From a virus: a stretch of 64,000 nt of DNA. The DNA is taken from the IMG/VR virus record IMGVR_UViG_3300037245_003639; one strand, given 5' to 3'. The notes beneath the pieces are model-generated. The model saw nothing but the letters and a program-made list of their open reading frames with translations, ran no database searches and had not been told where the DNA came from. Of this stretch, positions 26,835 to 61,814 are shown piece by piece (the first letter of the stretch is position 1; every line of letters begins with the position of its first letter). Both the position numbers and the translations under genes were made by a program.

Positions 26835-26835
26835 G

Positions 26836-29675: not shown

Positions 29676-29688
29676 AATGTAACCTCAC

Positions 29689-32613: not shown

Positions 32614-32614
32614 A

Positions 32615-33631
32615 TTAAGTATCCTTCTTCTCCATTACATCGGCCAAGCCCTCAAACAACTTATCTACCGATGACCGATGTAAAGACGTTCGATGACCGT
32701 CATTGGGTAATTCTACTTCAGGGTCACCGAAAACAAAATTGCCCGTGTTGTCGGCTTTCTTCGTTGCCACAGTCTTATGCCATTCTTCTCTGGCCTGAGC
32801 TTTCTTTTCTGCTCTTTGTTCTACTTGTTGTCTAAGAACCTCGCCAGCCGTTTCTGAGGGGAGATTTTCAAAATCCCGATCATCGCTAAACATGCTCATT
32901 GCATTTTTGGGAATATTGGGATTGAAATCACTTGAAGCCTGAGTATGAATAGGAGTTATTCCATCGTGGAGATTCTGTGGGTCAGACAGTTTATCTTGTA
33001 GTGACTGCCAGAATTGAGACTTCTGGTCGTGAGCATAATCCTTTTGAGCTTGCTTACTGACTGCAATCTGCTCATCACCCATTTTGTCTTGATGCTCTTC
33101 GGGCTCTTGGGCCATCTTATGGAGAGACTCGGAATCCCAAATCGTATTGGGGTTCTTTGACATGCCCATAAAGCCGCCTTTGTGACCTTGGTTATTTTCG
33201 CCGCCACGCACATCCATCGGGAGAATCGTGCTTGCTCCAGCTTGACGAATCAAAGTCTCGGCATCTATTCTCATAGTTCCTTGAGGAGGAGTAACTTCTC
33301 TTTGTAGATCGCAACAGTAACGACGGGCTGCCCGTTCAAGACCTTTGCCACGTAGACTTTCGTGTTTGGCCTGATGAGCAAATACTCGCAGATCATCACC
33401 GGTTACATCGACGCTGGCTTGTTTAGCAGCAAACAGTAGTTCGTTTGCAATGAAACGAAGCTCCTCCGACAAGACGCCCCTGAAGGTATCTTCGGTTACT
33501 GTCGTAAAGTTGAAGTCCACCTTTGGAGCGGCTTTCTTCTGGGCTTCTTTCTTGAGGACGACATCACCCTTGAGACCGTCGAGCAAGCTCGCAAAGATGT
33601 CGTTATCGTAGTTATGTCCTGAGAGCTTCAT
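32615..33631 (-). CDS. Hypothetical protein (338 aa)
   Basis: ORF in the structural operon. Confidence 0.5.
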   Translation of the reverse strand: MKLSGHNYDNDIFASLLDGLKGDVVLKKEAQKKAAPKVDFNFTTVTEDTFRGVLSEELRFIANELLFAAKQASVDVTGDDLRVFAHQAKHESLRGKGLERAARRYCCDLQREVTPPQGTMRIDAETLIRQAGASTILPMDVRGGENNQGHKGGFMGMSKNPNTIWDSESLHKMAQEPEEHQDKMGDEQIAVSKQAQKDYAHDQKSQFWQSLQDKLSDPQNLHDGITPIHTQASSDFNPNIPKNAMSMFSDDRDFENLPSETAGEVLRQQVEQRAEKKAQAREEWHKTVATKKADNTGNFVFGDPEVELPNDGHRTSLHRSSVDKLFEGLADVMEKKDT

Positions 33632-33642
33632 TGTTTTCTCCG

Positions 33643-34296
33643 TTAATTTTTCCCTGGCGGTTTAATTCTGTTAGGAGCACCCATGCCTTGCGGAGTGTAT
33701 TCCAGAGTCATAGGACCACCTGTGGAAGCGGCAGGGGTTTCCTCCCCCTTCCAGGCACCACCGACATGCTGTTGTAAACCTTCCAAAAGCCCGCCAATAT
33801 CAACAGGTTGACCTTGTGGAGGTATAACAACCACTTTCATAGAGCCATCGGTGCCTGGGCTCATTTTTACGCCATAATTCTGGTAACCCAAGAATTGTCG
33901 AATCCTCTGTCTTTCCTCGGCAAACCCGTCTACAGGGTTTTGATCTTCGACTGGCGCAGGTCCAAGGAACTGATCCGCGGGAGCACTACCTTGGCTACCA
34001 GCAGGGGCAACCCCATCGTTACCCAGACCAGTATCTTCTTGAGATCGTAAATCTCCCATTTGAGGAGGAGCATTACCTGAGATACCGGGAGAGTTACTTC
34101 CTGGGCCGAGTGCTTGATCAAGACCACGACGTAAATTACTCTTGTCAGCATCTGGCGCCGTAGGGGCTCCGAGAGATCCACCTGGAGGGCCTTCTACCGC
34201 GATAGCCACCTTCTCAAACAGCTTGTCGAAGATGCTCTCGTTTTGACATGGCCCCTGAGCGACCTGTTTGCGTCTTTTACCCGAAGGTACAATCAT
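33643..34296 (-). CDS. Gly/Pro-rich protein (217 aa)
   Basis: Low-complexity ORF. Confidence 0.45.
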   Translation of the reverse strand: MIVPSGKRRKQVAQGPCQNESIFDKLFEKVAIAVEGPPGGSLGAPTAPDADKSNLRRGLDQALGPGSNSPGISGNAPPQMGDLRSQEDTGLGNDGVAPAGSQGSAPADQFLGPAPVEDQNPVDGFAEERQRIRQFLGYQNYGVKMSPGTDGSMKVVVIPPQGQPVDIGGLLEGLQQHVGGAWKGEETPAASTGGPMTLEYTPQGMGAPNRIKPPGKN

Positions 34297-34310
34297 AATA
34301 AACTCCAGAA

Positions 34311-35150
34311 TTAGCGATCAGCGACCATCTCTTCAACGTAACTCTCTGGATAAAGAACGTTCCAAAATGCTCGGAACCACTCTTTCTCGTCATCCTGCAT
34401 GTTGGCATAGGTCTCACCAACCATTGCCTCGACATAAGCGAGCGATGGCTTGCGGGTTGTACCTTCAGCAGTCTTCTGAGGAAGATGAGTGTTTGACTTC
34501 TGAGCAGAGAGGTAAGCGAAGAGTTGAAGTTTCTTCTTACGATTTAATGATGCAATCTTCTCAAACTTAGCTACAGCAGATGAAGATTTGCCGGCAACCG
34601 GTTCACCCGGTTGTTTCTTGGAATCGCCCTTTGCCTTGGCAGGATCGGTGGATTCACCTTTCTGGTAATTCGGGTCATTGTTGATTAGGATCTTGGGTTC
34701 TGGATTCTCATCATCCCCCGGACCTGCCTCAGTGTGGTCTTCGGTGACTTTGCCCGCATCATCGGACCCGCCCATCTCCTTACCACATGTGGCCTCAACG
34801 ACCTTTTCGACAGACACTGCGCCCTTGTCGGTTTGCTTCTCTGGCTCATCGCCAGTATCAGTCTTGCCGCCCTTATCTTTTCGAGCATTTCCGCCCTGGT
34901 CGTTTTTACCATCAACGGATTCGCCTTCTTGATAACTATGGGCACCTTCCTCGTTGTCATTATTGATCACTTGACCACGTTGCTGACCGCGAGGTTCGTT
35001 GCCTGTGTCCTGGCCCAACCCAGGCTTTGCCTCAGAAGCTACTTTCTCTTCCTGAGAGGCGTGCTTGGTAAGGAATTCAGCGAGCCATTCATCGAATGAT
35101 GCGCCGCCATCCCCTGCCGGGTTCACAATTTTATGCGTGAAGAAATTCAT
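34311..35150 (-). CDS. Gly/Asp/Lys-rich protein (279 aa)
   Basis: Low-complexity ORF. Confidence 0.45.
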   Translation of the reverse strand: MNFFTHKIVNPAGDGGASFDEWLAEFLTKHASQEEKVASEAKPGLGQDTGNEPRGQQRGQVINNDNEEGAHSYQEGESVDGKNDQGGNARKDKGGKTDTGDEPEKQTDKGAVSVEKVVEATCGKEMGGSDDAGKVTEDHTEAGPGDDENPEPKILINNDPNYQKGESTDPAKAKGDSKKQPGEPVAGKSSSAVAKFEKIASLNRKKKLQLFAYLSAQKSNTHLPQKTAEGTTRKPSLAYVEAMVGETYANMQDDEKEWFRAFWNVLYPESYVEEMVADR

Positions 35151-35227
35151 GAGTCTCTCCTAATTTGCCTCTTCTATGTTGGACACCGTTATTTGGCGTT
35201 CCTCCCTTAAATTATGTTATTCTTCTA

Positions 35228-37084
35228 TCAAACTTGTAGTTCCTTTACTGGAACGCTGAATTCCGGAAACGTCAAGTCGATAATGGGCTTTTTATACTCT
35301 TTAATGAACTCGTCTAATATATCGGCTACATCCCCATCGATTTCATCAACTATGTCAGCGATTTTCACTAAATCACTCATCTTGATGATACTGTTGTCAA
35401 ATCTAAAACTTTCTGTCCCCATCAATTCTTCTAACATACGATCTGCGGCAGTCTCATCTCCAATATCTTCGCTAGCATCTTCGGTTGGAGCTACTGTAGT
35501 TTCTTCACCAACCTGAGGAGTTCCTACCATTTGTTTTTGCTTCTCGATGGCTTCAACAAAATCTCTGATTGTTTTCTGAGCCTCACCTTTGAAAATAAAG
35601 GACATCCAACTCAAAATCTTAATCACATCATCATATTTGAAAGATTCTCTGTTCATATCTGGGAGAAGACCATCATATAACTGTCCGAGAGCTTTGTCGT
35701 TGACAACCTCCTCAGCGACGGCTTCGGGAGGTTGTTCTTCGTCTGGCAGCCCTTGATCATATTTATCACCATATTCTTGCGGACCAGCGGCTGGAGTCTG
35801 GAGCCAACTTTGCATGCCTTCATCAGATTCTCTATTGATGTAGCGAAGTTTATCCCATAAACGCCCATGAGCCTTTTGAGCATACCATTGGGCTTTAGAG
35901 TTCATGGGATTCTGGTAAAGACGTTCTAATATCTCCTGGAGAGTAGCGTATTCCTCTGCCGGCGAACCCTGAGCGAAGGGATTTCTGCGGCCCTGCTCTG
36001 TAAGTCCAACATCTCTACCGAGAATTGGTTGACGAGTTCTGAGATCTTGCATACTCTCTTGAATGGAGTTGATATGTGCATATACTGTTTCCATAGATGA
36101 GAATATCTGGTCTATCGATTTTTCAGCCCGTCCAAAAATTTGTTGGTTGTATTCATTCTGAACTGGAGTATTATCTAATAGATGTTTTAACTGTTGCAGG
36201 ACTAAAGCGCTGCGATTCCAGTCATCTAACTCCACTCCTCTTATTGTTTGAACTACATTTTGAAGAACGTCAACATCTTCTTGGGCTGGCTGTTGAGTCC
36301 ATGGCAATTCTCTTCCCGAACCAGCAGTATATCCCTCAGCTTCAGCTTTAAGCCGGGATATCTGCGTTTTGATTTGCTGGGTGATTCGAGTGATCGATGA
36401 TAAATCGTTGAGAATTGCATCAAGTTCTTGGATGGCATCTAAATCTTGACCGCGCTCCCGGGCGTCTCTGGACCAACGACGTGGATTAAAGGCGCTCCAA
36501 AAGCTGCCTTTATCACTTGGGTTCCAAAAACGCGACCACCATCCTCTGCGGGGCGCGGCTAACTTAAAATTTGAGTGAGTTTCCGAATCTTTTGATAGAA
36601 GGTTACCCAATGTTCCAAGGTGACCTAAGATCGAAGCGAAAACCTCCTCTTCGATTCCGTTGTCTTCGAGCATCACTGCAACCTTTTCTACCTTCTCGAT
36701 ATGCTCGCTGATTTTTCCTTCATCACCGACCGTGGACAAGAAGAAGAGATGGGCCACATCGAATTGCTGAGGCTCATGTTGAATCACCTGAGCATATTTT
36801 GAGGTCCACTCAGTATCATGGTAATCCTGTCCATCTTGGTATTCTTTCAAGCAATCCAGAACAACTTCTTGCATAGGAGATTGTGAACCCGCTCTCTTCT
36901 TGCGGATACAATTACCCATTGCTCGGTTTTGCTTGAGAACGTATCCAATTACCCCAACATATTGAGCCAACTTTTGCAATGATGCTGTTTTGACTAAATC
37001 GTCCACAGCATCAGCACAAATTTGTTTGCCCTGCTTGTCGAGGCGGTCAGATAGTTCAAGTAAATAGCTCTGCAAACTACCCAT
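35228..37084 (-). CDS. Hypothetical protein (618 aa)
   Basis: Long ORF. Confidence 0.55.
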   Translation of the reverse strand: MGSLQSYLLELSDRLDKQGKQICADAVDDLVKTASLQKLAQYVGVIGYVLKQNRAMGNCIRKKRAGSQSPMQEVVLDCLKEYQDGQDYHDTEWTSKYAQVIQHEPQQFDVAHLFFLSTVGDEGKISEHIEKVEKVAVMLEDNGIEEEVFASILGHLGTLGNLLSKDSETHSNFKLAAPRRGWWSRFWNPSDKGSFWSAFNPRRWSRDARERGQDLDAIQELDAILNDLSSITRITQQIKTQISRLKAEAEGYTAGSGRELPWTQQPAQEDVDVLQNVVQTIRGVELDDWNRSALVLQQLKHLLDNTPVQNEYNQQIFGRAEKSIDQIFSSMETVYAHINSIQESMQDLRTRQPILGRDVGLTEQGRRNPFAQGSPAEEYATLQEILERLYQNPMNSKAQWYAQKAHGRLWDKLRYINRESDEGMQSWLQTPAAGPQEYGDKYDQGLPDEEQPPEAVAEEVVNDKALGQLYDGLLPDMNRESFKYDDVIKILSWMSFIFKGEAQKTIRDFVEAIEKQKQMVGTPQVGEETTVAPTEDASEDIGDETAADRMLEELMGTESFRFDNSIIKMSDLVKIADIVDEIDGDVADILDEFIKEYKKPIIDLTFPEFSVPVKELQV

Positions 37085-38390: not shown

Positions 38391-38841
38391 ATCTAAAAGC
38401 TCGTTGTACCCAGTTATTGTATTCTCTATCTGCCAAAGTAAATGCCACTTTACCTTCATGCTGTGAGGCTCTGTGAATAAACTCATAGTTGAAATCAAAG
38501 TCGTCATCTTCGAACGATGATTTTTCAGAATGCAAGATGATATTCCGGATAATCGTTTTCCCTTTGTCAGTTATCTCCACAGTTCTGACGGGTATTCCTT
38601 CCGCCCCTACTCGACTCATGGGTTTATTCTTCACCATGCCCTTCGATGTCAGAGATGCTATAACCATTGGGTCCACATCTTCTGGGACCACCAGATAACC
38701 ATATGAATCCTTTTCTCCCCGCCAAACAGAAAAAAGTGCTTTCGCTTCCTTGTCGGTGATAGGTGAACGAGGAATGATCTGAATTGATTGAAGTGGAAAA
38801 ACGTTAATAAAGTCAAGCAGCGACTGTGCTTTCTTCTTCAT
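38374..38841 (-). CDS. Hypothetical protein (155 aa)
   Basis: ORF. Confidence 0.45.
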   Translation of the reverse strand: MKKKAQSLLDFINVFPLQSIQIIPRSPITDKEAKALFSVWRGEKDSYGYLVVPEDVDPMVIASLTSKGMVKNKPMSRVGAEGIPVRTVEITDKGKTIIRNIILHSEKSSFEDDDFDFNYEFIHRASQHEGKVAFTLADREYNNWVQRAFRYGNST

Positions 38842-39643
38842 CTTTGGCTCCTAACTCTAGAAAATTCTCTACCTCTTCATTCATCAGTAATTTCCCAAGC
38901 CGAAATCTCTTAAACATATCAAGAGCTTTCACAGCATCTATCTTCAAAATACGCACCATTTCCTTGACGATCCTTTCATGAGTAATCATCTCAGGAAGGA
39001 GATGTAAATTCTTTTTCATTTCATTACGCAGATTGGCCTCGATAAAGAAGTCATAAGTAACAGCAAAGCGAATCGCACGCAGGATTGCTAATGGGTTATA
39101 TTTGATAAGCATGTCCGGCGGCAGTACAGAAATAATCCGTTTGCGTTTCAGGTCTCTAACAGCTTTACCCAGCGGATCCAATAGTTCATCTTTGACAGGC
39201 GAGTAAATCAAAGTGTTGATTGTAAAATCACGACCATAAATATTGTTCATCAAAGGAACATCGTCTACGTTTGACTGATGGAGATAATCCTTCACTTCTT
39301 GATTGTACATATAGGATTGGGCGCTTTTGCCTTGAAATTCTACTTTAATGGAACCCTGCTCGGACTTATACTCCAACACTGCTGTGCCAGTTCTTTGATA
39401 GAACTTCGGCATAGTATTCAATTCTTCTGATGCAAACAAACCGCCCAACTGAATGGCCTGCTCATGATATGCTGAAGCAACATCAATATCATTTGTTTCC
39501 CAACGGCGACCCATAGCCACAGAACGACAATAACCACCGACTATGAACAACGAATCTATACCATACAACTGAGTGAAGTGCCGCAGATGAGCAATCACTT
39601 CATCGATTAGAATCTCTTTGTTGATAATTTCTTCTTTGGTCAT
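38813..39643 (-). CDS. tRNA nucleotidyltransferase or poly(A) polymerase family protein. A minimal head-domain enzyme that may add CCA.
   Basis: GGYCRSVAMGRRWETNDIDVAS resembles the GGxVRDxLLG...DxD nucleotidyltransferase motif. GRDFTINTLIY resembles the RRDFTINA motif of class II CCA-adding enzymes. The protein is only 276 aa. Confidence 0.7.
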   Translation of the reverse strand: MTKEEIINKEILIDEVIAHLRHFTQLYGIDSLFIVGGYCRSVAMGRRWETNDIDVASAYHEQAIQLGGLFASEELNTMPKFYQRTGTAVLEYKSEQGSIKVEFQGKSAQSYMYNQEVKDYLHQSNVDDVPLMNNIYGRDFTINTLIYSPVKDELLDPLGKAVRDLKRKRIISVLPPDMLIKYNPLAILRAIRFAVTYDFFIEANLRNEMKKNLHLLPEMITHERIVKEMVRILKIDAVKALDMFKRFRLGKLLMNEEVENFLELGAKDEEESTVAA

Positions 39644-50382: not shown

Positions 50383-52635
50383 TTATCCGCAGCGAGAGTG
50401 CAGACAGACAGGACACTTCAGACAAGCCGCATCTGATTGCATCTCCGTCTTCTTGCCCTTCTTAGCACATTTCTCGCAATAACGGTCCTCGGAAACAGCC
50501 AGAATCTCATCCACGGTCAAATAGTGTTTCTTAAGAATCCGTCCAACGGCTTTCGAAAAACTGGTCAATTTGTCGCTGCTCTTATCGATTTGCTGCACAA
50601 TATACTTCGGGAGGATGCCATGACGAAGCTCCAGACTGAAGCGCCGAGTCTCCAAGCCCAATCTGGGGTCAATTTCTTCTTCAACTATGTTTAGATTATC
50701 AATCAGAATCTCACCAGATTCGTCCAGAAGCGAGTAATGTCTTTTTTTCCTCTTCATTACCTGGCCTTGTGACGGCAGATTTTCGTAACCACCATTAACA
50801 GCAAAAATTTCATAAGGCTGGTTGTTCTCAAGTCCTACGATAATATGCCACTGCATGCCCTCGGCCGTCGTTCTGTAAATATCACAGGCAACAGTTCTGG
50901 GTCGAGGTCGAGAGAGATTAGCTCCATAGTTAGTGTTGGTTTTGTCGTCCGACGTAAGCACTTGAGATGTTTTGCACTCGTCTCGATAAATGGTGATTCC
51001 TTTACAACCTTTTTTCCAAGCCCGAAAATAAGCTTCAGCGATATTTTTCTTAGTCGCATTGTTAGGCATGTTGATTGTTTTGGAGATTCCCGAATCGACG
51101 TTCTTTTGGAATGCTGACTGCATATCTACATGCTGTTTCCAATCAACTTCTCGGGCTCCATCCCGATCTTTGTCTATGGCACATCTGAAATACATTTCAT
51201 CTGCTTGCGGATGCGACATCTTGTAATTACCAGTGTTATCTGAGCGATATGTAGTAGGGGCATAGATGGGTTCAGCCGAACTGGAACATCCTGCTATAAT
51301 GGCAATTGAACCTGTGGGCGCCAGCGAGAGGGTTGTGGCATTGCGACGGTAATCCAATTCTCGATACTTACAAGATTTTGGAGTGCCACGTTCTTCAGCC
51401 AACTCAACCGATTTCTCGTGAGTTACATCTTTGAAGAATTTAGACATCTTTTCCGCATAAACGATAGAAGGTTCTTCTCCATAAGCCATATGCTTCTTCA
51501 ACAATAGATCTGCCCAACCCATGATGCCCAAACCCACGGGGCGGTTGTCCTGAGCCCATTGCTTAAATTCTTCGGTGGGGAATTGATTCTTGTCGATAAC
51601 GTTGTCCAAAAACTGGAAAGATGCGCGAATGTCATCCCTTAGTTCATTCCAATTTACGTCATCAAAATCAGGAATGTAATATTTTGAGACATCGATAGAA
51701 CCTAAATTACACGATCCCCATTGCGGTAGCATTTGTTCTCCGCAGGGGTTTGTGGCCGTAAGCTCTTGTCCACTATGTTTGTAAGGCCCATTGTTAATGG
51801 CGTTGTAGAACAATATTCCTGGGTCACCATTGTTCCAGGAATTTGCTACAATTAGATCAAACACGTCATGAGCTTTGATGCTTTCGTAAACTTCGCCGCC
51901 GAAGCGTAAATCAAAAAGACCATCCTTTTCAACGGCCTGCATAAACTCATCAGTTATTAGAACAGAGATATTGAAATTGGATATAAACTTATCCAACATA
52001 ATGTTTGCATGTTCATGAGTATGACCGTTCAGTTTGTCGAAGTGATTGAAGAAATCTTCTTTGAGTTGGTATTTCAGGGCGAACTCGCGTTGTTTACAGG
52101 TAATGAATGTATGAATGTCAGGATGATCTACCCGCAGCACGCCCATATTAGCCATGCCTCGAAATCCCGCTTGAGTAATCGAATTCATAGCCTCAGATAC
52201 AACAATCATATGACGAACGGGGCCGCACGCTTTATAGTGAGTAGAGCCAAATACTCTATCGCCTGAAGGTCTGATTTGCGAGAAGTCAACTCCGCATCCG
52301 CCCCCACGGCGGGCAATATGCCCAAAGTTGGCTATGTTTTCACACATACCAATCCAACTATCTTCTGGGCTTTTGGTTACAAAACACGCCAGCAATCCAC
52401 CAACTGGATTGCCAGCGTTTACAAGACAAGGGGAGTTTGGAAGAAACCTGGTGGAGTAAAGCAGTTTCGAGATTTTCTTTTTGAACTCTTGGGATTCGTG
52501 GCCACAAACTGCCTTCGTTACCCTTTGAACTAACCCATCCCAGTCTTCAATGTTATTGCCATCATCATCCTTACGATAATATCGCGTGGCGGCGACGTTA
52601 CGCGCCGCGGCGTTGAGTGGACACTCTTTTCCCAT
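50383..52635 (-). CDS. nrdJ: Ribonucleotide reductase, class II type (NrdJ-like)
   Basis: The active-site motifs are NPCGEQMLPQWGSCNLGSIDVS and LAPTGSIAIIAGCSSSAEP. The C-terminal Zn ribbon is CEKC...CLKCPVC. The corrected start is MGKECPLN, preceded by GAGGAGA and a 7-nt spacer. Confidence 0.8.
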   Translation of the reverse strand: MGKECPLNAAARNVAATRYYRKDDDGNNIEDWDGLVQRVTKAVCGHESQEFKKKISKLLYSTRFLPNSPCLVNAGNPVGGLLACFVTKSPEDSWIGMCENIANFGHIARRGGGCGVDFSQIRPSGDRVFGSTHYKACGPVRHMIVVSEAMNSITQAGFRGMANMGVLRVDHPDIHTFITCKQREFALKYQLKEDFFNHFDKLNGHTHEHANIMLDKFISNFNISVLITDEFMQAVEKDGLFDLRFGGEVYESIKAHDVFDLIVANSWNNGDPGILFYNAINNGPYKHSGQELTATNPCGEQMLPQWGSCNLGSIDVSKYYIPDFDDVNWNELRDDIRASFQFLDNVIDKNQFPTEEFKQWAQDNRPVGLGIMGWADLLLKKHMAYGEEPSIVYAEKMSKFFKDVTHEKSVELAEERGTPKSCKYRELDYRRNATTLSLAPTGSIAIIAGCSSSAEPIYAPTTYRSDNTGNYKMSHPQADEMYFRCAIDKDRDGAREVDWKQHVDMQSAFQKNVDSGISKTINMPNNATKKNIAEAYFRAWKKGCKGITIYRDECKTSQVLTSDDKTNTNYGANLSRPRPRTVACDIYRTTAEGMQWHIIVGLENNQPYEIFAVNGGYENLPSQGQVMKRKKRHYSLLDESGEILIDNLNIVEEEIDPRLGLETRRFSLELRHGILPKYIVQQIDKSSDKLTSFSKAVGRILKKHYLTVDEILAVSEDRYCEKCAKKGKKTEMQSDAACLKCPVCLHSRCG

Positions 52636-52732
52636 GCTTACATTCTCCTCAATTCCATATAACGGTGAAGGCAATATTCACAAATTCAATCTCAGTTCCT
52701 TCACCGATTTTCAAAGGGACATAGAGCGTGGA

Positions 52733-53461
52733 CTATACTGCTGGATCGAAGAGACCTTCCTGTTGGGCTTTGTATTTTTCTTTGATTTCGACACGTTTTT
52801 GTTCGCGCTTTCTGGCCTTCCGGGTTTGCTGTTTTGCTTTCTTTAGCTCTTTCTGCGATTTCGGTTTCTTTGCACTGATGTTGGTTGTGCCGGTCGCTTG
52901 TAATCGCTTTCTTGCTTGTCTCTTGGCATGAATTTTGGCTTTACGCTTGTCGTTGCGTTCCTGCATTTTTTCTTGAGTTGATTGAACGGTAGGCAAATCG
53001 ACAAGTAATTTGCCCTCTAAATGGTCGTATTCATGTTGAACGATGACAGCCTCTGTCCAATTCAATTCTAAAGGACCATCGACATCACTCAGGAAAAAAC
53101 CATTTTGATCTTCGGATAATTCGACGATGCGATCCGCATCAATGACAACGCAAGCACACCTTTCAACAGTCCGCATGACGCCTGGAAGAGAAAGACAACC
53201 TTCAGTGGAAGGAGTTGTATTCTCACCCATCTCTTCAAACCTGGGATTTACAAAACCGTATCTGCGGTTCAAAGCAGGCAACCAGGCGATAAAGACCCTT
53301 TGTAATGTGTTTATTTGGGGTGCAGAAAGACCCAACTGTCTGTCAGGCAAGGAGTCGCATAAGTCATGGAGTAAATTGAGAGTTTCTGCTGATTTGGGAT
53401 CAACTGGTTCTGATTTTTGATGCAGCAACTCTCGGTCAGTAATGATAGTTCGCTTAGCCAT
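52733..53461 (-). CDS. def: Peptide deformylase with a long Lys/Arg-rich C-terminal extension
   Basis: The three PDF motifs are GLSAPQI, EGCLSLPG and QHEYDHLEG. The basic tail is about 80 aa long. Confidence 0.85.
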   Translation of the reverse strand: MAKRTIITDRELLHQKSEPVDPKSAETLNLLHDLCDSLPDRQLGLSAPQINTLQRVFIAWLPALNRRYGFVNPRFEEMGENTTPSTEGCLSLPGVMRTVERCACVVIDADRIVELSEDQNGFFLSDVDGPLELNWTEAVIVQHEYDHLEGKLLVDLPTVQSTQEKMQERNDKRKAKIHAKRQARKRLQATGTTNISAKKPKSQKELKKAKQQTRKARKREQKRVEIKEKYKAQQEGLFDPAV

Positions 53462-54453: not shown

Positions 54454-54642
54454 TCACTCATACAACTCCATTTTTTTCTTACGTCCCTTGCCAACACATT
54501 TAGCTTGGAGCCGCTTTTGATGCGCCTCCCGGGCCTTTACGTCCTCGATAGTGGGGGAGAAATGCGAAAAATGCAGTCTCATCCACGCTTCGGAGGGAGC
54601 TTTAGCCATATTATAATGGATTAGTGCTTCTGTCAACCTCAT
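54454..54642 (-). CDS. Small basic protein (62 aa)
   Basis: The ORF overlaps the DHH gene stop by 4 nt. Confidence 0.4.
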   Translation of the reverse strand: MRLTEALIHYNMAKAPSEAWMRLHFSHFSPTIEDVKAREAHQKRLQAKCVGKGRKKKMELYE

Positions 54643-55763
54643 TTTTCAGTTATTTTCTGGAATTTCCGCTCGATATTCGTCTTTACCAAGTCCCAGAGGC
54701 CCGACATCTCGTCGGCTGGCATCGATGATACGTCAAAAACGTTGATCTGGACCTTGGCCCCTCCGATACCATGTTTGGCTCCACCGTTACCCTGACCGAA
54801 GAGTTCGTCCAAAAGATTCTGAGCATCCAGAGTTGAACTTGAAGTTCGCACACTTCCTCGCACAGCACCTTCCACAATAGCATATACCACAACTGTCTGA
54901 ATGCCCTGCAATCTCATGAACTTATCTGCCAAATAAGGAATACAATCGCTCTTGGAATCTTCCAAGAACCCTAAACCCGCAATCAAACTTGGGGGTTGAT
55001 AACTTTTGTTCTCCCAGGCGGTACGTTCCGCATCAAACACGTAAGGTGATAGTTCATAATTGACGATTTTATGGAATTTTTCGTCACTAAAATGACGGCT
55101 CAAAACTTTGTATGCCTGAAAATCATCATCTGTCGTGTTTTCTGTCAAAAAGTCCAGTGTGTCTGTTTTGATACCAACTGCTAAAGATGTGGCAATCTCT
55201 CTCATGTTGTCTGCATCAGGATCGAAACACTGAATTTGCTCATCCTCCACTTGTATGCAAAGCGAAAGCATCAGATCAACAATCAGGGTCGCACATGCTC
55301 CAATTTCATCATGAATCGAGAGGACGCCTCTGGCCGGGACATTTTTGTGATGATCCACCACAATATCAGGATCAAATGGAATGCTCATGTTATTTTGGCC
55401 GCCAACACAATCTACGAAAACAACAACTGGTTTCTCTTTGGCGTTGATGAACTCATTCTCGATGGTTTTTGTCCAAGGGTTGATCGGAATCTTCAAGACG
55501 GTTTTCATCGCTCGATTTTGTGGGTGAGAGATTTCTCCGCAGTAATACATTTTGATCGATTCTGCGCCCAAGAACGATAGAATATGGAACATTCCATACG
55601 CAGAAGCCAGTGAATCAGGATCGGGATTATCATGCGAACAAACTATAAACTGTCTATGTCGTTGCTCTTCAATAAATTTGCAAAAGGCATCTTTCTTGGC
55701 TTTGACCTTTTTGTTGCCAATTGGGGCGATTAGATTTTTGTGTTCTTTATTACTATCGGACAT
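54639..55763 (-). CDS. DHH-DHHA1 family phosphoesterase, NrnA or RecJ-core like
   Basis: Motifs present: VCSHDNPDPDSLASA (DHH motif I), VFVDCVGG, VVDHHKN (DHH), and Gly-rich GNGGAKHGIGGAK (DHHA1 GGGH-like). Confidence 0.7.
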   Translation of the reverse strand: MSDSNKEHKNLIAPIGNKKVKAKKDAFCKFIEEQRHRQFIVCSHDNPDPDSLASAYGMFHILSFLGAESIKMYYCGEISHPQNRAMKTVLKIPINPWTKTIENEFINAKEKPVVVFVDCVGGQNNMSIPFDPDIVVDHHKNVPARGVLSIHDEIGACATLIVDLMLSLCIQVEDEQIQCFDPDADNMREIATSLAVGIKTDTLDFLTENTTDDDFQAYKVLSRHFSDEKFHKIVNYELSPYVFDAERTAWENKSYQPPSLIAGLGFLEDSKSDCIPYLADKFMRLQGIQTVVVYAIVEGAVRGSVRTSSSTLDAQNLLDELFGQGNGGAKHGIGGAKVQINVFDVSSMPADEMSGLWDLVKTNIERKFQKITEK

Positions 55764-55772
55764 GACTGCTTT

Positions 55773-56201
55773 CTAGATGTTGCGGATGGCTTTGCGGGCG
55801 ATATCCATATGAGTCGAGAGATATTCGTTCACTATTGTACAACAAGTCTCCTCGATAATTTCAAAATCGCGTAAATCAAGTCCTTCCGAACTCTGAAGTC
55901 TTTTTCTTTGGGCGTCAATTAAATCAGATAGTTTGGTTTCATCCACGATAGCGCTAACCACCTGAAGCCAAGTTTCCCCATTGTCAAACGCAGCGTTGAT
56001 TTCGTCGTCGGAGGCTTCACCGAATAAATCAGCCAAACATTCGACATAACCGGTCTGGCACCCATCTTGTTGCTCCATGTCCAAACCAACGAGTTTTTTG
56101 GTTTCCCATTTGACTAAACTGGAGAATATCGTGACAATGAAATCATCTGTCAATGATGGTTCAAGTATATACACTGCCATATCAGTATTTTCCTTGGACA
56201 A
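55773..56201 (-). CDS. Hypothetical acidic protein (142 aa) within the RNA-repair operon
   Basis: The ORF is tightly packed between the HD-Pnk and DHH genes. Confidence 0.5.
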   Translation of the reverse strand: MSKENTDMAVYILEPSLTDDFIVTIFSSLVKWETKKLVGLDMEQQDGCQTGYVECLADLFGEASDDEINAAFDNGETWLQVVSAIVDETKLSDLIDAQRKRLQSSEGLDLRDFEIIEETCCTIVNEYLSTHMDIARKAIRNI

Positions 56202-57269
56202 TTATACATAGATGACCTCGTGGGCCTCGGTTAGATCAGGGACTTCCCATTTATTCAATAGCTTGTTGATAACGGTTTCGGGGACTGCATTTTTTCGGGC
56301 TTTGTTTTGCTTCCATAGGTTATCGTGATCGGTTTCAACATAGACTATACAGATACGGGCTCCGTACTGCCGAAGCAACGTGAGACATTTATTACGAACC
56401 ATTTTGCTTACGTTAGTAGCATTCCAAACAAAATCCCGCCTGGCACCCAATAGACGTTTCGCTTCATCCTTGGCCTGCCGGATGACCTTTGACTGATTAT
56501 CCGCAGGTCGGACTCGCAGACTCTCTCTGATTGCGTCAAGAGAAACAACTGGTAGACCATCACAGTTGGCATGGATATAATGGCTTTTCCCTGAGCCCGG
56601 TAATCCTGACATAACTATCACTGTCGGTCTAAGCGGCGGACGAGCTTGGCTGCGGATATCTTGGCCCAGGTTGAAATGAGCAACCCGGGCATGATCAGAA
56701 GCAAATGGGTAAGAAGCTCCCCAGCAACCAATCTCCTGACAGAATTTCCGGAATATATGAACTTTCTCAACACTTTCGCCCCCATCAGATAGACAATGCC
56801 GACCTTCCGCATCCGCCTCAGCCAATATAGCCAGCAAGTCAGTTCTGACGGACAAACTGATTTGTGCCACGTAACTTTCCATGTCAGATGCATCCAACAG
56901 ATGCAAAGGGCGCATATGATATTTGACCAGATTGCAAACATCTTCGCGGGCTCTGAAGTCGGCTCCGGCTTCCCAAAGAATGCGACGAGCCTTTATAGTC
57001 CCTTTGAGAGCATGGTTTTTGCTGGTAATGCGCCCATCAACAACATCGAATACGTCAGGCTTGGCACAGTCATGCAAGATTGCTGCCGTTAGGAGAATAT
57101 CCTGAATCTCATTTGGTTGTGCCTGATAAGCGCGGAGTCCACGTAGAGCCGAGCATACTAACTGCGTATGAACCCAAACATCGCCTTCTCCGTGATATTC
57201 GGGACTTTGCTCACATTGACGCATCGCATCAACCCAGGGAGCATCCAGATTATTCGGGTCGAGCAACAT
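56202..57269 (-). CDS. HD-Pnk: an N-terminal HD phosphohydrolase fused to a C-terminal P-loop polynucleotide kinase
   Basis: The HD motifs are HGEGDVWVH, ILHDCAKP, KYHMRP and EADAEGRH. The Walker A motif is VMSGLPGSGKSH. Confidence 0.75.
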   Translation of the reverse strand: MLLDPNNLDAPWVDAMRQCEQSPEYHGEGDVWVHTQLVCSALRGLRAYQAQPNEIQDILLTAAILHDCAKPDVFDVVDGRITSKNHALKGTIKARRILWEAGADFRAREDVCNLVKYHMRPLHLLDASDMESYVAQISLSVRTDLLAILAEADAEGRHCLSDGGESVEKVHIFRKFCQEIGCWGASYPFASDHARVAHFNLGQDIRSQARPPLRPTVIVMSGLPGSGKSHYIHANCDGLPVVSLDAIRESLRVRPADNQSKVIRQAKDEAKRLLGARRDFVWNATNVSKMVRNKCLTLLRQYGARICIVYVETDHDNLWKQNKARKNAVPETVINKLLNKWEVPDLTEAHEVIYV

Positions 57270-57978
57270 TACATTTGCATCCTTCGTTTATCTGGGTCTC
57301 GATACGTCTAATCTGCGAAGTCCAACAATCGATAGCCAAATAGCCACTTAGCGCATCAGCCTCGACTAACAGTTTGATTACTTCGATGGCTTGCATGCTA
57401 CCGACCATGCCAACCGCTGCTCCTAATACTCCTCGCTCAACATCTGGAGTACCGCAGACGCTGGCCTCAAATATGCACCACAAACAAGCTGTCTGGCCCG
57501 GGACAATAGCCCAGACTCTTCCTTCTGTTTCTGTCACTCCGCCGTAAACCCAGGGTTTGCGGAGTTTGATGGCCCAATCGTTGATGATAAAACGACTATC
57601 CATATTGTCTGTGCAATCGGCAATTACATCTGCATCCGCCAGCAACTCCTCTGCGTTGCCATCTGTCAGTCGTTTAGATTCCAATCGCAGCCGAATCGTT
57701 GGGTTAATTCTTAATAAACGAACTCCTGCTCGTTCAACTTTGAATTTACCCACGTCAACGCTGTCGTAAAGAACTTGACGAGGCAAATTGCTTGATGCAA
57801 CTCGGTCATCGTCAATGAGTGTTACGTTGACGCCTGAGCGAACCAAAGACGAGCTAACTACGCAGCCCATTCCTCCGCAACCAACGATGGCTACTCGTTT
57901 TTCACGCAGTTTAGTATGACGCTTCGCTCCCAGAAGAGCTATTTGCCGATTGTATCGGTCATCGGTTATGCGGCCCAT
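57250..57978 (-). CDS. E1-like adenylyltransferase of the ThiF/MoeB family
   Basis: Motifs present: RYNRQI, VAIVGCGGMGC, DDDRVASSNLPRQ, DCTDNMDSRF, plus the Zn motif CLWC...GCKC. The RBS is AGGAG with an 8-nt spacer. Confidence 0.75.
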   Translation of the reverse strand: MGRITDDRYNRQIALLGAKRHTKLREKRVAIVGCGGMGCVVSSSLVRSGVNVTLIDDDRVASSNLPRQVLYDSVDVGKFKVERAGVRLLRINPTIRLRLESKRLTDGNAEELLADADVIADCTDNMDSRFIINDWAIKLRKPWVYGGVTETEGRVWAIVPGQTACLWCIFEASVCGTPDVERGVLGAAVGMVGSMQAIEVIKLLVEADALSGYLAIDCWTSQIRRIETQINEGCKCNVARPE

Positions 57979-58754
57979 ATATCAACTCCTGGAGCCAGTT
58001 GATTTTCTACAATTGGTCGTTCCATCCAATGAGAGCCCGAATCAAGCAACTGCTGTACGAAACTGTGTCGCACAAACTTTAGTCGCTCACTGACAACTCC
58101 GTCTTCTTCCACTTTGATATATAGGCCCTCGGAGAGCCTGCTCATATCCGTCTCTGCTTTCGTGGCGTCAAACTCATGTTTGGCAGCTTCGGCTGCAAGT
58201 TCCAGGGCTAATTCCCAATCCTCACTTTTGTACAGAGAAGTTCCTACCAGCGAAAGCAGATGATCATAATCTTCGGCGGTTCCTGACCACAAAACAGGCA
58301 CGGAGATCACTGGCAATTTCTCCAGCATCGCATAACGCCGTGGAGTATCCAAAAAGACTTCTGTTTCTTTGTCGAAAATATCGAACTCCATGAAGAGATG
58401 CGGGAGCATGTCATAAAACTCGGTATGCTTAGCCTGCATCCATTCGCCGTACATAATATAGCGATTACCTAGCACCTTCCAGAAACTGTCTGCATGGCAT
58501 GGAGCCCAAGCTTTCAGCCTCGTGAAGTGGCGCTCGCGTGGACCTCCCCGCAACGCATGGCCTCGACTTTGAAGCAACAAATCACCTTTGCCATGAAAAC
58601 TGACAGCGCAATTGGCCCCGTCGAGTTTCTCTTCCACGACGATATGACGACCCTTCAAATCCACGAACGGAACCTGTGTCAGGTCTTCATCGCCTTGTTG
58701 AAGACGAGAACCTTTCAAGTGACGAGTCCTGGGATATTTGTAGAAGTCTTTCAT
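57966..58754 (-). CDS. ATP-dependent RNA ligase, Rnl2-like nucleotidyltransferase
   Basis: The N-terminal KYPRTRHL is followed by motif I EEKLDGAN (KxDGxN). The likely true start is MKDFYKYPRTRHL. The ORF-track start at 58781 is a GTG. Confidence 0.65.
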   Translation of the reverse strand: MKDFYKYPRTRHLKGSRLQQGDEDLTQVPFVDLKGRHIVVEEKLDGANCAVSFHGKGDLLLQSRGHALRGGPRERHFTRLKAWAPCHADSFWKVLGNRYIMYGEWMQAKHTEFYDMLPHLFMEFDIFDKETEVFLDTPRRYAMLEKLPVISVPVLWSGTAEDYDHLLSLVGTSLYKSEDWELALELAAEAAKHEFDATKAETDMSRLSEGLYIKVEEDGVVSERLKFVRHSFVQQLLDSGSHWMERPIVENQLAPGVDIWAA

Positions 58755-59024
58755 AATTTCATCAACCCTATAGCGTAACACTGCGGAGCCAATTTGTCAA
58801 GGTTTTTTGGCAGAACAAAAATAACGGCAACTGCCGCCAGGGTATAAAACTCAAAATTATATGGTCTTTCCTGGAATGATGACAAAAAAAGTCACCATCC
58901 GCCTCTCCAGTATTGGAATTAGACGATTTCAATGCAAGGATTTTCCTCTCACGGGCCGTAAATAAGATAACAGGACAATATCCATATAATGGTGTAAATA
59001 TTTTTCGGACTATAAGGCACAAAT

Positions 59025-61814
59025 ATGAACTGGTTATTTCGCTTCAAAAAACTGGCTCAACAAACCATTCCACTTAACATGAAGAGTCTGATGGAACTCG
59101 GTGAGAGTCCATATGCCGAGACTGCTGCTAGTCTTCTACGCATGTTTGATAAGATGTTTACCCAAATTCCTCAGCTTCTCACAAACGAACCAATACTCAC
59201 AGACGTTGATGCCAGCAATCTCGGTAACGAAATATTCATTGCAGTAAAAGAAAATGATGATCTTCAGTTCGACGATTGGGATGATACATGGAATTTTATT
59301 ACGACTGTTGAGAGTGAAAGAGAACATCTTAGATCTAAATCAGAACTAAGGACAAGTTTCCATATTGATGGCTTAACCTATTCAGAAGAACCAGGCGCTT
59401 ATGGACCGATGATTAACGGAATTGCACTTCGCCAGGCAGATCCTGCTACACTTAGCGAGTTTGTTAACAAAATAAGAAAACTTGGCGAATATATCGAAGA
59501 AGCTAAAGATATGGTTGCAGGCGAACCCGAAGAGGCAGGTGGAGACTGGAACTCAGAAATGATGGTGGGCAGTGGCTGGTGGGAAGGCAAAGAAGTCAGA
59601 CAGTTCTACGACCAGTATAAAGCTGGTCTAGAACAAATACAACTTGTTATTCAGCAAAATCCCGGCTGGCAAAATAATTTCAATGAGTTGGTGGATAGCG
59701 TCACTGAATTGTCTATTACCTTCCTGTCTTTAATGCGAAAAAGCGAAACAGGGGAAACTGTCCCTCCGCCACAACTTCCCTGGATTGATGCCGAATTATT
59801 CAAAAGAAGCATCAAGGCAAATAACATCAACAAATCCACCGAATGGTTTATGAACAAAAATCCTGAATTCAAAGCAGGACTTCTAGCAGATGCTCAACGG
59901 CGGCACAGAGATGCTCAAGTTGCTGCATTGGAAGATAGCAAAATCCAATTTGATCATGCCCACGGCATGGCAGACACCCCTGTAGGAGAGACTAGCTGGT
60001 TGAATGCCCTGAGGATGCCATTCAATGGTCTTGATGAAGGTGATCCTCGTCTTTCATTGGACGCTAAAACTCTTTCCACTATGTCTGGTCGTATAGCCGC
60101 ATTACAAGTGCGGGGAGCAAACGAGACAAGTCAAGTCATTGCACTCTACGTTGTTGCCATTCAAATGAAAGCCATGAGTGATCCCAACCTTACTGACGCA
60201 TTCGGTAATAGTTTGGAATACGCTCCTGACAGAGATCGAGCGCGAGCAGGAGCCATGGCAGCGGAAGGAACCTACACATTACCTGAAGTTTTCCAAGGCA
60301 GGAGTGTTCGAGAAATCAGCGGATCGATTGAAACGCACTTCAGTGAAATGAGAGATTTCTTCGAGAATATCAAACGAATTGTCAAAACCCGAAATTACGA
60401 ATATTCAGAAGCAGAAGCTGTTCGCCTAAGAGAACTGGGGATTTTGAGCAAACCGATGCCGGGTATAAAATATCGAGTCCAGGAAGAACGTTTTCCAGGC
60501 ATGGGTTATCTGGAGGGTGAAGAAGTTGGTCGCGTTGGAACTAACTTCCAAATTGCTATCGCTCCTACTGCGGAATACTTGCAACAGAAAGGTTTACCCG
60601 AGAAAATCTTCTCCAAATATGACGCCCGCGACAGCCAAAAAGGTATGCACCTGCACGGATCTGCTCGCGACATAGATGGATTAGCTCCTATCGGATGGGT
60701 CGGTGGTTGGGTTGATCCTGAAACCAGGGAAATGTTCGTATTCGAAACTCAAAGTGACATAATGCAGCGCTCCGGGTTCATGAGAGATTCAGTTAAACTT
60801 GAGGACGAACGAAAAGCCAGGGCATTCCAATTAGAAGCAGACATGACTGCCGTGCAACAACAGATTACGGATCTGCAAACAGGAGCCACTCAACCTAAGA
60901 AGAAAAAAGGTCCAAAAGACGCTATCCGGGCCAATATCCGACGCATCAGAGCAGATATAGAACAGGCTAAGGCCGATTTAGATCAATTATCTCAGCAAAA
61001 TCAAGCAATGGAACAGCAGGCAGACTTCGATCCTAACCACCCAGGTTACTTGCATAATAAACAAGTCATAGACACCAAACTAAAAGCAATCTCCAAATTT
61101 ACTCAACAACTCCAGAGGATGGAGGAAAACCTGGCTCGCATTCCCGATCCTGTCGAGCCCGAACTCGCGCCCGAGATTCAGCAGCCCGAGGGACAGCCCG
61201 TTGCACCTGAAGGACAACCTGTTGCACCTGAAGGACAACCTGTTGCACCTGAAGGACAACCAGTCCCTGAGTTGCCGCAACAACTTCAACAGAAAATAAA
61301 TAAACTGCAAAACAAACTACAGAATCTGGAAGTGGAGTTGATTGAATCTAAAAAGCCAGTTCAACCACTTACGGGTTCATACGTTTGGCCACATTGGCAC
61401 GACTATCGTTCTAAGTTAGAGACGGCTTTCAAAGACTGGATTCCGATCTTCTGGAATACAGCCGTTAGAGAAGCCAAGCAGATGGGTATTGTCAGTCTCT
61501 ATATCGTCCACTCAGACGAACTTATGAAGATATGGGCGGGCGTTCTTAGAGGCAAAACCGCTGAAGAAAAAGAACTTGTCAGAGGTTTGTACAAAAGGGT
61601 CTACGATAAAATTGCAGAGGGCTATGGTGCAACAGAAGTCAATTATAGGGGCAGAAAATTCTTCCGAATTGACATCAACGATCCAAACCTGCGATTTGCG
61701 TCTAATTGGTTTATGAGAGCCCCTTACGACTCTCCGTATGCCCGTCTGGTCAAAATCAACTGGCCTAAATCACACGGGTTACCCAACACAACAGGATTGG
61801 TTCGTAGATCCTAA
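59025..61814 (+). CDS. Large protein of 929 aa, paralog B. It is the only plus-strand gene and carries a (PEGQPVA)n repeat.
   Basis: It shares N-terminus MNWLFRF with paralog A, along with GWVGGWVDPETREMFVFETQSDIMQRSGFMRD and WHDYRSKLETAFKDWIPIFWNTAVREAK. Confidence 0.6.
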   Translation: MNWLFRFKKLAQQTIPLNMKSLMELGESPYAETAASLLRMFDKMFTQIPQLLTNEPILTDVDASNLGNEIFIAVKENDDLQFDDWDDTWNFITTVESEREHLRSKSELRTSFHIDGLTYSEEPGAYGPMINGIALRQADPATLSEFVNKIRKLGEYIEEAKDMVAGEPEEAGGDWNSEMMVGSGWWEGKEVRQFYDQYKAGLEQIQLVIQQNPGWQNNFNELVDSVTELSITFLSLMRKSETGETVPPPQLPWIDAELFKRSIKANNINKSTEWFMNKNPEFKAGLLADAQRRHRDAQVAALEDSKIQFDHAHGMADTPVGETSWLNALRMPFNGLDEGDPRLSLDAKTLSTMSGRIAALQVRGANETSQVIALYVVAIQMKAMSDPNLTDAFGNSLEYAPDRDRARAGAMAAEGTYTLPEVFQGRSVREISGSIETHFSEMRDFFENIKRIVKTRNYEYSEAEAVRLRELGILSKPMPGIKYRVQEERFPGMGYLEGEEVGRVGTNFQIAIAPTAEYLQQKGLPEKIFSKYDARDSQKGMHLHGSARDIDGLAPIGWVGGWVDPETREMFVFETQSDIMQRSGFMRDSVKLEDERKARAFQLEADMTAVQQQITDLQTGATQPKKKKGPKDAIRANIRRIRADIEQAKADLDQLSQQNQAMEQQADFDPNHPGYLHNKQVIDTKLKAISKFTQQLQRMEENLARIPDPVEPELAPEIQQPEGQPVAPEGQPVAPEGQPVAPEGQPVPELPQQLQQKINKLQNKLQNLEVELIESKKPVQPLTGSYVWPHWHDYRSKLETAFKDWIPIFWNTAVREAKQMGIVSLYIVHSDELMKIWAGVLRGKTAEEKELVRGLYKRVYDKIAEGYGATEVNYRGRKFFRIDINDPNLRFASNWFMRAPYDSPYARLVKINWPKSHGLPNTTGLVRRS
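61188..61270. repeat. 21-bp in-frame tandem repeat, about 3.5 copies, encoding PEGQPVA
   Basis: The sequence cctgaaggacaacctgttgca is directly repeated. Confidence 0.6.

Follow-up and report, generated by a model that had tools for sequence, protein, structure and literature searches.

In Runella slithyformis, a ligase-like open reading frame (ORF) lies directly upstream of, and overlaps, the gene for a bifunctional HD-Pnk protein (Munir & Shuman; PMC6097658), and the ligase self-adenylates but sealed none of the standard substrates tested (PMC6097658). Accessory enzymes have also been described within RNA-repair operons, such as RlaP (PF10127), a widespread nucleotidyltransferase (more than 10,000 sequences) that is inserted, e.g., between RtcB and RtcA (PMC12776372). 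As for the E1 superfamily, carboxylate nucleotidylation is the defining reaction of ThiF-like enzymes (PMC12596934), and TcdA, whose identity to MoeB is only about 14%, contains a K+ site but no Cys4 zinc site, its unique C-terminal half blocking the carrier-docking surface (PMC4405576). Here we examined a stretch of 64,000 nucleotides (nt) from IMG/VR virus record IMGVR_UViG_3300037245_003639 (the window), in which a gene for an E1-like adenylyltransferase of the MoeB/ThiF type (hereafter E1) separates an ATP-dependent RNA ligase-like gene (Rnl) from an HD-Pnk gene. We found that this arrangement is a rare, optional variant of a known cassette, and that the E1 belongs to a new clade of a known enzyme family. 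In the part of the literature that we covered, E1 enzymes are not described as members of RNA-repair cassettes.

The E1 gene (57250..57978, minus strand) encodes 242 amino acids (aa) from an ATG start. The full MoeB/ThiF signature that a first-pass annotation had read in it was confirmed, every quoted motif being found and Pfam ThiF (PF00899) being matched from end to end (E=1.8e-60; 204.5 bits against a cutoff of 28.1; residues 9-235 on profile positions 1-237 of 238). In particular, RYNRQ occupies residues 8-12, GCGGMG 33-38, DDD 56-58 and SNLPRQ 63-68, followed in the second half by DCTDN (121-125), CLWC (165-168) and CKC (234-236). The adenylation residues (R8-Q12, G33-G38, D56-D58, S63-Q68, K80 and D121-N125) align with those of E. 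coli MoeB and ThiF, and all of them, from the Arg finger to the Asp of DxTDN, are kept in the five phage E1 proteins (5/5), as are the cysteines of the predicted Cys4 zinc site (C165/C168 and C234/C236), whose second motif is a conserved CxC replacing CxxC. The protein had been called minimal, which is true beside its nearest relatives of ~340 aa but not beside E. coli MoeB (249 aa) and ThiF (251 aa), whose size it simply has. The GC content of the gene is like that of its neighbours, and nonsynonymous divergence (dN) between the window and the relative at 80% E1 identity (L001) was 0.141 for E1, 0.128 for Rnl and 0.099 for the downstream DHH-family gene; synonymous divergence (dS) is saturated in this comparison, in which dN alone is comparable. 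Since the residues are kept, dN is similar to that of the neighbours and the GC content matches, the E1 is, on this sequence evidence, under purifying selection, old in the phage lineage and functional. It is a genuine MoeB/ThiF-type adenylyltransferase with an intact predicted active site. That it might be the relic of a gene gained by horizontal transfer, decaying or no longer functional, is barely credible: one close relative has indeed lost the E1, but five diverged lineages retain an intact ORF, the catalytic and zinc residues are all conserved, dN is low against saturated dS, and the fold is confidently predicted.

We then compared the protein with the characterised branches of the superfamily. 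Among the NCBIfam models, it scored 177 bits (176.8) with ThiF, 167-169 with MoeB, 142 with SAMP-E1, 46 with TcdA and 42 with Cap2, all under the respective equivalog cutoffs (ThiF TIGR02356, 176.8 vs 275; MoeB PRK05690, 167.4 vs 266; MoeB TIGR02355, 143.2 vs 377), and therefore it cannot be named as ThiF or MoeB specifically. The alignment to E. coli MoeB and ThiF runs over the whole length. The AlphaFold (AF2) model had a predicted local distance difference test score (pLDDT) of 86.6, and its best Foldseek matches were MoeB (1jw9_B) and ThiF (1zud), with a template modelling score (TM) of 0.88 over 236-245 columns, followed by UBA5, Uba4, MccB and PaaA; no TcdA chain was present among the top 50 fold matches. 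The C-terminal half, i.e. the carrier-docking half, is modelled as MoeB/ThiF-like (TM 0.88), and by homology the enzyme is predicted to be a Rossmann-fold dimer with a Cys4 zinc site. By sequence and fold, the E1 is of the MoeB/ThiF type and not of the TcdA, MccB or Cap2 type.

The roles suggested in the first-pass annotation fared unevenly in this comparison. A MOCS3/MoeB-like sulfur-carrier E1 was the best fit among them. The annotation had also held that clustering with canonical MoeB, together with a carrier partner elsewhere in the genome, would speak against its idea of a new function, and the first of these two is what we found, as the protein grouped with canonical MoeB/ThiF. A TcdA-like identity was not supported, the match to the TcdA model being weak (45.8 bits against a cutoff of 304) and limited to the N-terminal half (residues 8-146), with the zinc cysteines retained, a MoeB-like C-terminal half and no TcdA among those fold matches. 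The MccB/PaaA type was likewise rejected: the adenylation domain starts at residue 8 and there is no N-terminal peptide-clamp (RRE-like) domain, and MccB aligns only via its residues ~111-264, with structural coverage of ~60% of the target (target-based TM, TMt, 0.56-0.62). As for a Cap2-like enzyme, or interference with host ubiquitin-like systems, the best PADLOC E1-E2 (Cap2) match reached 70.3 bits over residues 19-148 in a model of 579 positions, NCBIfam cap2_3 gave 42 bits against a cutoff of 320, and the phage protein has no E2 domain, so that this suggestion found no support either.

Relatives of the E1 were few. A search of 5.8 billion proteins returned an exact copy, carried by a contig of 403 kb, together with a protein of 80% identity and three of ~56%, and the clade comprises five protein clusters only. 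After these, identity falls to 42-45%, in bacterial proteins of ~340 aa that align over the whole phage protein. These bacterial MoeB/ThiF-family proteins are, from the sequence comparison, likely to represent the donor lineage; the locus of one contains MoaA, MoeA and a cysteine desulfurase, and that of another MnmA, a MobA-like gene, NifU and NifS. Compared with 115 bacterial relatives, all five phage E1s (5/5) miss a conserved ~100-aa C-terminal domain, and all five have D, Q or K in place of the crossover-loop Cys (ThiF C184 / MoeB C187), which is 97% conserved in the bacterial proteins. The lost domain, seen in P0006, P0017 and about 100 others, is marked by the motifs CGR..VQ and F.DGRAIV.GT...ARY[LV]G. 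It was considered as a fused GG-ended carrier and rejected, only 8 of about 100 sequences ending in GG and most in GA, YL or GS. An IMG/VR scan for peptides of the window E1 itself gave no match, so that the contig of the window is absent from the collection scanned. Tblastn with the E1 against INPHARED gave matches of only 26-36%, mostly bacterial fragments filed as phage. The apparent phage match in Stenotrophomonas phage TS-12 was discarded as a bacterial NarHJI/MoaA/MoeA/MoaE locus; the segment (L027; MW302330.1, record positions 24078-36803) carries NarH/NarJ/NarI, a Crp-family regulator, MoaA, a 343-aa MoeB, MoeA, MoaE and MFS transporters, which suggests host DNA or a misassembly in the GenBank phage record.

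The missing cysteine bears on the idea of an anti-defence decoy, in which a Cys-less E1 would trap, by binding or adenylation, the ubiquitin-like protein or the CD-NTase C-terminus of a host Bil or CBASS-Cap2 system and block conjugation. The crossover-loop Cys for thioester transfer is indeed missing in 5/5 phage E1s, and the gene lies among probable counter-defence functions (tRNA repair, phage tRNAs). However, MoeB works without a catalytic Cys, which is not needed for the adenylation step, and the Cys loss thus implies no trap; moreover, the Cap2 models stay at or below 70 bits (residues 19-148; cap2_3, 42 bits) against 177-204 bits for the ThiF/MoeB models, and the nearest relatives are metabolic MoeB genes. 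We consider the decoy highly improbable.

We next focused on the cassette itself. The E1 had been described as embedded between the RNA ligase and HD-Pnk genes with overlapping reading frames, and this was borne out: the Rnl stop overlaps the E1 start by 13 nt (57966..57978, minus strand; ATGGGCCGCATAA, read from the sequence) and the E1 stop overlaps the HD-Pnk start by 20 nt (57250..57269, minus strand; ATGTTGCTCGACCCGAATAA, read from the sequence). Rnl (57966..58754, minus strand) matched Pfam RNA_ligase (PF09414, E=4.3e-30) and has a conserved KxDG motif (EEKLDGAN); its ORF is open to a GTG at 58781 (57966..58781), and homologues begin at the ATG at 58754 (MKDFYKYPRT). A PDB sequence search found no Rnl relative at E<=0.01. 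HD-Pnk (56202..57269, minus strand; 355 aa) combines an N-terminal HD phosphoesterase domain (Pfam HD, 52-137) with a C-terminal P-loop polynucleotide-kinase-like domain (AAA_33, 217-342), and weak NCBIfam and PDB matches were to bacterial Pnkp and the HD region of CCA-adding enzymes. From their domains, the two genes are predicted to form an RNA end-healing and sealing unit.

All four E1 relatives above 50% identity (4/4) sit between Rnl and HD-Pnk and, where the E1-bearing contigs reach, genes for a ~134-aa protein (u134) and a DHH phosphoesterase follow HD-Pnk. To avoid bias, we used the neighbours Rnl and HD-Pnk, and not the E1, as anchors for the wider survey, taking the best 80 of 317 metagenomic and the best 80 of 488 bacterial matches. 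HD-Pnk adjoined Rnl in 67/80 metagenomic loci with an Rnl homologue (52-72% identity), nearly always directly downstream. In the bacterial set, where the anchor was an HD-Pnk homologue of 38-48% identity, 68/80 loci had Rnl next to HD-Pnk, and the median gap was 81 nt; the bacterial homologues came from Myxococcota, Acidobacteriota, Planctomycetota and others. No ThiF-family ORF was found in these loci by tblastn and profile hidden Markov model (0/80 metagenomic, 0/80 bacterial), and a profile of 120 E1 sequences run against their six-frame ORFs gave zero real matches. Similarly, five IMG/VR phage loci with Rnl and/or HD-Pnk had no E1, and a broad E1 alignment searched against IMG/VR recovered 16 E1-like loci, with Rnl/HD-Pnk only at a known close relative; these collection scans rely on exact conserved peptides. 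Since the pair is adjacent in 67/80 and 68/80 loci and a ThiF-family gene occurs in 0/160, Rnl followed by HD-Pnk is the ancestral two-gene unit and the E1 a lineage-restricted insertion.

A search with the 134-aa protein led to a close relative (L025/L026) that has the gene order of the window without the E1: a divergent gene for 920 aa, Rnl, HD-Pnk, u134, DHH, a 61-aa gene, HNH, a 70-aa gene, peptide deformylase and ribonucleotide reductase. In L025, Rnl overlaps HD-Pnk directly, by 11 nt. This E1-less phage is as close to the window as the E1-bearing L003 or closer, its DHH protein being 83% identical to that of the window vs 73.5% for L003. In a neighbour-joining tree of concatenated Rnl and HD-Pnk (592 columns, five outgroups), L025/L026 grouped with the window and L001 in 83% of bootstrap replicates and fell outside the E1-bearing phages in 10%. 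The E1-less relative is thus probably nested within the E1-bearing clade, so that one gain of the E1 followed by a loss is the simplest reading of what is a small tree with moderate support. Because u134 and DHH are both present in L025/L026, these two genes are not dependent on the E1. The E1 is an optional accessory of the Rnl and HD-Pnk cassette, not a core component of repair. The first-pass annotation had asked whether the neighbourhood is conserved and had raised a new functional association, and its interpretation is supported in part: the placement is unusual and every relative with this E1 has it at the Rnl|HD-Pnk junction, but the gene is optional and lineage-restricted, being absent in L025/L026 and in 160/160 wider loci.

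We also searched for a carrier protein that the E1 might act on. The search covered about 73 kb of the 403 kb genome (the 64 kb window and 9 kb beyond). Among window ORFs of 40-200 aa, only one ends in GG, antisense inside a gene for 1820 aa, and no plausible ThiS or MoaD was seen; a Pfam scan of the 60 other window ORFs gave no ThiS, MoaD, JAB, PP-loop, rhodanese or desulfurase family, and past the window end, the 9 kb contain 21 small ORFs without a GG-terminal one among them. No other molybdenum cofactor (Moco) or thiamin genes were found in the visible 73 kb. The earlier remark that no GG-ended MoaD/ThiS partner lies nearby therefore holds for the window and the 9 kb beyond it.

Taken together, our best explanation as a whole, held tentatively and a little short of an even chance, is an acquired and trimmed MoeB-type E1 that serves as an optional accessory of the cassette and adenylates a carrier in trans, perhaps for tRNA thiolation. 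A small clade of very large uncultivated phages would have taken up a bacterial MoeB-type gene and trimmed it, with loss of the C-terminal domain and the crossover-loop Cys, and the gene would have settled as an optional accessory at the junction of an ancient Rnl and HD-Pnk end-healing and sealing unit. The enzyme would use ATP to adenylate a carboxylate. Because the C-terminal docking half is MoeB/ThiF-like and the active site intact, the most likely substrate class is a ThiS/MoaD-like carrier in trans: the C-terminal glycine of a ThiS/MoaD/TtuB-type sulfur carrier would be supplied by the host or encoded elsewhere in the phage genome. Since the crossover-loop Cys is missing, the reaction would halt at the acyl-adenylate, as in MoeB, and host persulfide donors would carry out the sulfur transfer. 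The end-use that best fits the context would be the thiolation of repaired or phage-encoded tRNAs, e.g. s2U34 of tRNA-Lys(UUU), which is speculative.

Several results weigh against this explanation. Neither the 64 kb window nor the 9 kb beyond yielded a carrier, a PP-loop thiolase, a desulfurase or a rhodanese, and carriers are detectable when present, because a 96-aa ThiS-family ORF was found directly upstream of a distant viral E1 (L192; IMGVR_UViG_3300007874_000004), which served as a positive control. The absence of the 97%-conserved crossover-loop Cys in all five phage E1s could mean a new substrate, and a substrate change is possible as well from the 25 of 77 highly conserved core positions at which the phage clade differs. 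The cassette persists without the E1 in the close relative L025/L026. Tight packing around the E1 is only weak evidence of co-function, since ORF overlap is ordinary in this genome: 16/58 same-strand neighbour pairs in the window overlap and 33/58 lie within 20 nt. Finally, most bacteria make s2U34 via MnmA without an E1, and a lone E1 would add little without TtuA/TtuB-like partners. The control locus (L192:5619-8568) comprises the ThiS-family ORF, a MoeB-like E1 (32% identical to that of the window), an MFS transporter and a methyltransferase, and thus holds a conventional pair of carrier and E1 in what is putatively a virus or a prophage flank.

Some of the same results would suit a passenger or auxiliary metabolic gene, i.e. 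a captured MoeB/ThiF that boosts a host Moco, thiamin or other sulfur-carrier pathway, came to lie at a gene boundary that tolerates insertion and has no tie to RNA repair. Its nearest relatives are MoeB genes in Moco loci, it is absent in a close relative of identical gene order and in 160/160 wider cassettes, ORF overlap is normal in this genome, and the cassette shares a long run of same-strand genes with HNH, peptide deformylase and ribonucleotide reductase genes, which are unrelated to it. Against this, all known E1s of the clade are at exactly this junction across lineages of 56-80% identity, what else is known to have inserted there are enzymes of tRNA repair, the loss of the conserved Cys and of the C-terminal domain argues against a like-for-like replacement of MoeB, and the visible 73 kb contain no other Moco or thiamin genes. 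We regard the passenger gene as a realistic alternative, though a doubtful one.

What would link the E1 to tRNA is its context. In another phage lineage (L084 and, by spacing, L077 and L096), the Rnl|HD-Pnk junction holds RlaP (PF10127, E=6e-82) and a 443-aa CCA-adding enzyme (L084:6804-9040), and the junction is thus a recurrent insertion point for tRNA-repair accessories. Contig L188 is colinear with the window end (window position 64000 is L188 position 8911) and carries a tRNA-Met 1.9 kb past it (L188:6902-6977) and, 4.9-7.2 kb past it (L188:1713-3985), two tRNA-Lys(UUU), two tRNA-Lys(CUU), two tRNA-Phe(GAA) and one tRNA-Met(CAU), all on the cassette strand and about 6-13 kb from the E1, the distance to the cluster being about 11 kb. 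Given the RlaP and CCA-adding enzyme at the junction elsewhere and the tRNA cluster nearby, the tRNA link is plausible, the context being suggestive and not a test. L003 carries the E1 without any tRNA gene within 9 kb. The paired tRNA copies of L188 (two each of Lys(UUU), Lys(CUU), Phe and Met(CAU)) differ in sequence, and one tRNA-Lys(CUU) (L188:3663-3736) has an odd anticodon loop, UUCUUGC, with G at position 37 instead of A, which is reminiscent, by analogy, of nuclease-evading phage tRNAs; a role of phage tRNAs in evading tRNA-targeting defences has been reported (PMC10264068, PMC11555353). Within the window, a 276-aa ORF (38813-39643, minus strand) with a GGYCRS motif and a PolyA_pol head (CCA-adding/poly(A)-polymerase-like) lies among large, probably structural, genes.

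There are two further possibilities. First, RNA repair might be coupled to re-modification, the E1 being tRNA-directed either via carrier-dependent U34 thiolation of repaired or phage-encoded tRNA-Lys(UUU) or, as a MoeB derivative, via an independently evolved adenylation of a tRNA carboxylate such as t6A37. In both cases, tRNAs that were cut and sealed again, or that resist nucleases, would become fully competent in decoding; we consider this coupling fairly unlikely. Second, the E1 might be a stand-alone adenylase acting on an RNA or small-molecule carboxylate, for example in the ATP-dependent cyclisation of t6A37 to ct6A on tRNA-Lys or tRNA-Met, with the action of TcdA but outside its family, or in activating a peptide or metabolite as MccB or PaaA do. 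This would account for the lack of a carrier gene nearby (64 kb window and 9 kb), and the loss of the thiol-chemistry Cys and the C-terminal domain would fit an adenylation-only function; the junction houses tRNA-directed enzymes in another lineage, and 6/8 nearby phage tRNAs read ANN codons, as do the tRNA species that bear t6A37 (PMC5389693). On the other side, the phage E1 has retained the Cys4 zinc site, and its C-terminal half resembles that of MoeB/ThiF (TM 0.88 over 236 residues), whereas TcdA is without the zinc site and its docking surface is blocked by a TcdA-specific segment (PMC4405576); the TcdA model reaches 45.8 against its cutoff of 304, and an MccB-type N-terminal peptide clamp is lacking, RYNRQ being already at residue 8. 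A stand-alone adenylase is, in our view, unlikely.

Downstream of HD-Pnk, u134 (55773..56180, minus strand) encodes an acidic, phage-clade-specific protein of 135 aa with just nine relatives among 5.8 billion proteins. It had no Pfam, PHROG, NCBIfam or PADLOC match and no PDB fold match, and its AF2 model consists of alpha-helices throughout (pLDDT 73). The protein, which has an invariant RKAIRNI tail, was considered as a carrier or substrate of the E1 and rejected, because an all-helical model without a fold match does not correspond to a beta-grasp carrier and the gene is present in the E1-less phage. The DHH-family phosphoesterase gene (54639..55763, minus strand; 374 aa; Pfam DHH, E=1.4e-8) has conserved HDNPDPD, DHH and GNGGAKHG motifs, and its DHH domain weakly matched the NCBIfam model of Mn-dependent pyrophosphatase; a PDB sequence search returned no relative, and an NrnA/pyrophosphatase-like label would rest on such weak, partial matches only. 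The best sigma-70-like promoter match (TTGTCA-18-TATAAT, 11/12; 58856..58885, minus strand) lies in the divergent intergenic region upstream of Rnl. It is a consensus match only, the total count of such sites in the region being not above the shuffled expectation, and no comparable site was found in front of the E1. A terminator-like hairpin with a run of T residues (58822-58839, minus strand) separates the promoter-like site from the start codon of Rnl and could be a leader or attenuator element, or due to chance.

Further genes around the cassette were also noted. The divergent neighbour is a 929-aa ORF (59025-61814, plus strand) with no family match that is conserved in relatives (911-920 aa) and contains a 21-nt tandem repeat (3.4 copies, 61191-61261) encoding PEGQPVA repeats. 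The peptide deformylase (52733-53461, minus strand; 242 aa) has a long, lysine-rich C-terminal tail after a Pfam domain that ends near residue 155. The ribonucleotide reductase (50383-52674, minus strand) has 763 aa, and that of the relative at 80% E1 identity (L001:10880-14284) has 1134 aa with a LAGLIDADG intein. In two relatives (L001:75-1235 and L025:2855-4078), the cassette is preceded, at a distance of a few kb, by a TnpB/IS605 OrfB gene (Cas12f1-like_TNB), and in L009 a LAGLIDADG_2 homing endonuclease is directly upstream of Rnl; mobile elements are active around the cassette locus.

Phage tRNA-repair cassettes counter anticodon nucleases, and their accessory genes hint at what else needs fixing after an attack. 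If the E1 truly serves tRNA, the locus would be the first link of RNA sealing to E1/sulfur-carrier chemistry, and it would show that a phage can reduce MoeB to an adenylation core. Were the E1 a mere passenger, the locus would still mark the Rnl|HD-Pnk junction as a place where accessory genes insert recurrently.

Compared with known systems, the phage E1 (242 aa) shares its size class and fold with E. coli MoeB (1JW9; 249 aa) and ThiF (1ZUD/1ZFN; 251 aa), with 33-35% identity from end to end, a TM of 0.88, a root-mean-square deviation of 2.0-2.9 and the Arg finger, P-loop, SNLxRQ, Lys, DxTDN and first CxxC in common. Unlike in these enzymes, its crossover loop is shorter by 2-3 residues and has no Cys at the position of MoeB C187 / ThiF C184, its second zinc motif is CxC and not CxxC, and it lies in an RNA-repair cassette with no carrier, Moco or thiamin genes nearby. 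The closest cellular sequences, the ~340-aa bacterial MoeB/ThiF-family proteins (PRK12475-like; P0006, P0017 etc.) of Planctomycetota/Acidobacteriota-type metagenomes, differ in having the C-terminal domain and the crossover-loop Cys and in being found in Moco and sulfur-mobilisation loci. TcdA/CsdL, the t6A37 dehydratase (ct6A synthase), shares the E1 superfamily, ATP-dependent action on a carboxylate and a conserved N-terminal nucleotide-binding half, but not the Cys4 zinc site or the MoeB-type C-terminal half. The E1 domains of CBASS Cap2 and Bil share the E1 nucleotide-binding core; Cap2 is an E1-E2 fusion of ~500-600 aa, whereas the phage protein has neither an E2 domain nor a catalytic Cys. 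At the level of the locus, the Runella cluster has the same pair of a ligase-like gene and an HD-Pnk gene of the same architecture, but it has Tpt1 and an MTase-HIT fusion as accessory genes and lacks an E1, while in the window the E1 splits the pair. Finally, RlaP provides a precedent for an accessory enzyme between two core genes of an RNA-repair operon, although its fold and chemistry are unrelated to those of the E1 and it is widespread, whereas the E1 insertion has been seen in only five protein clusters.

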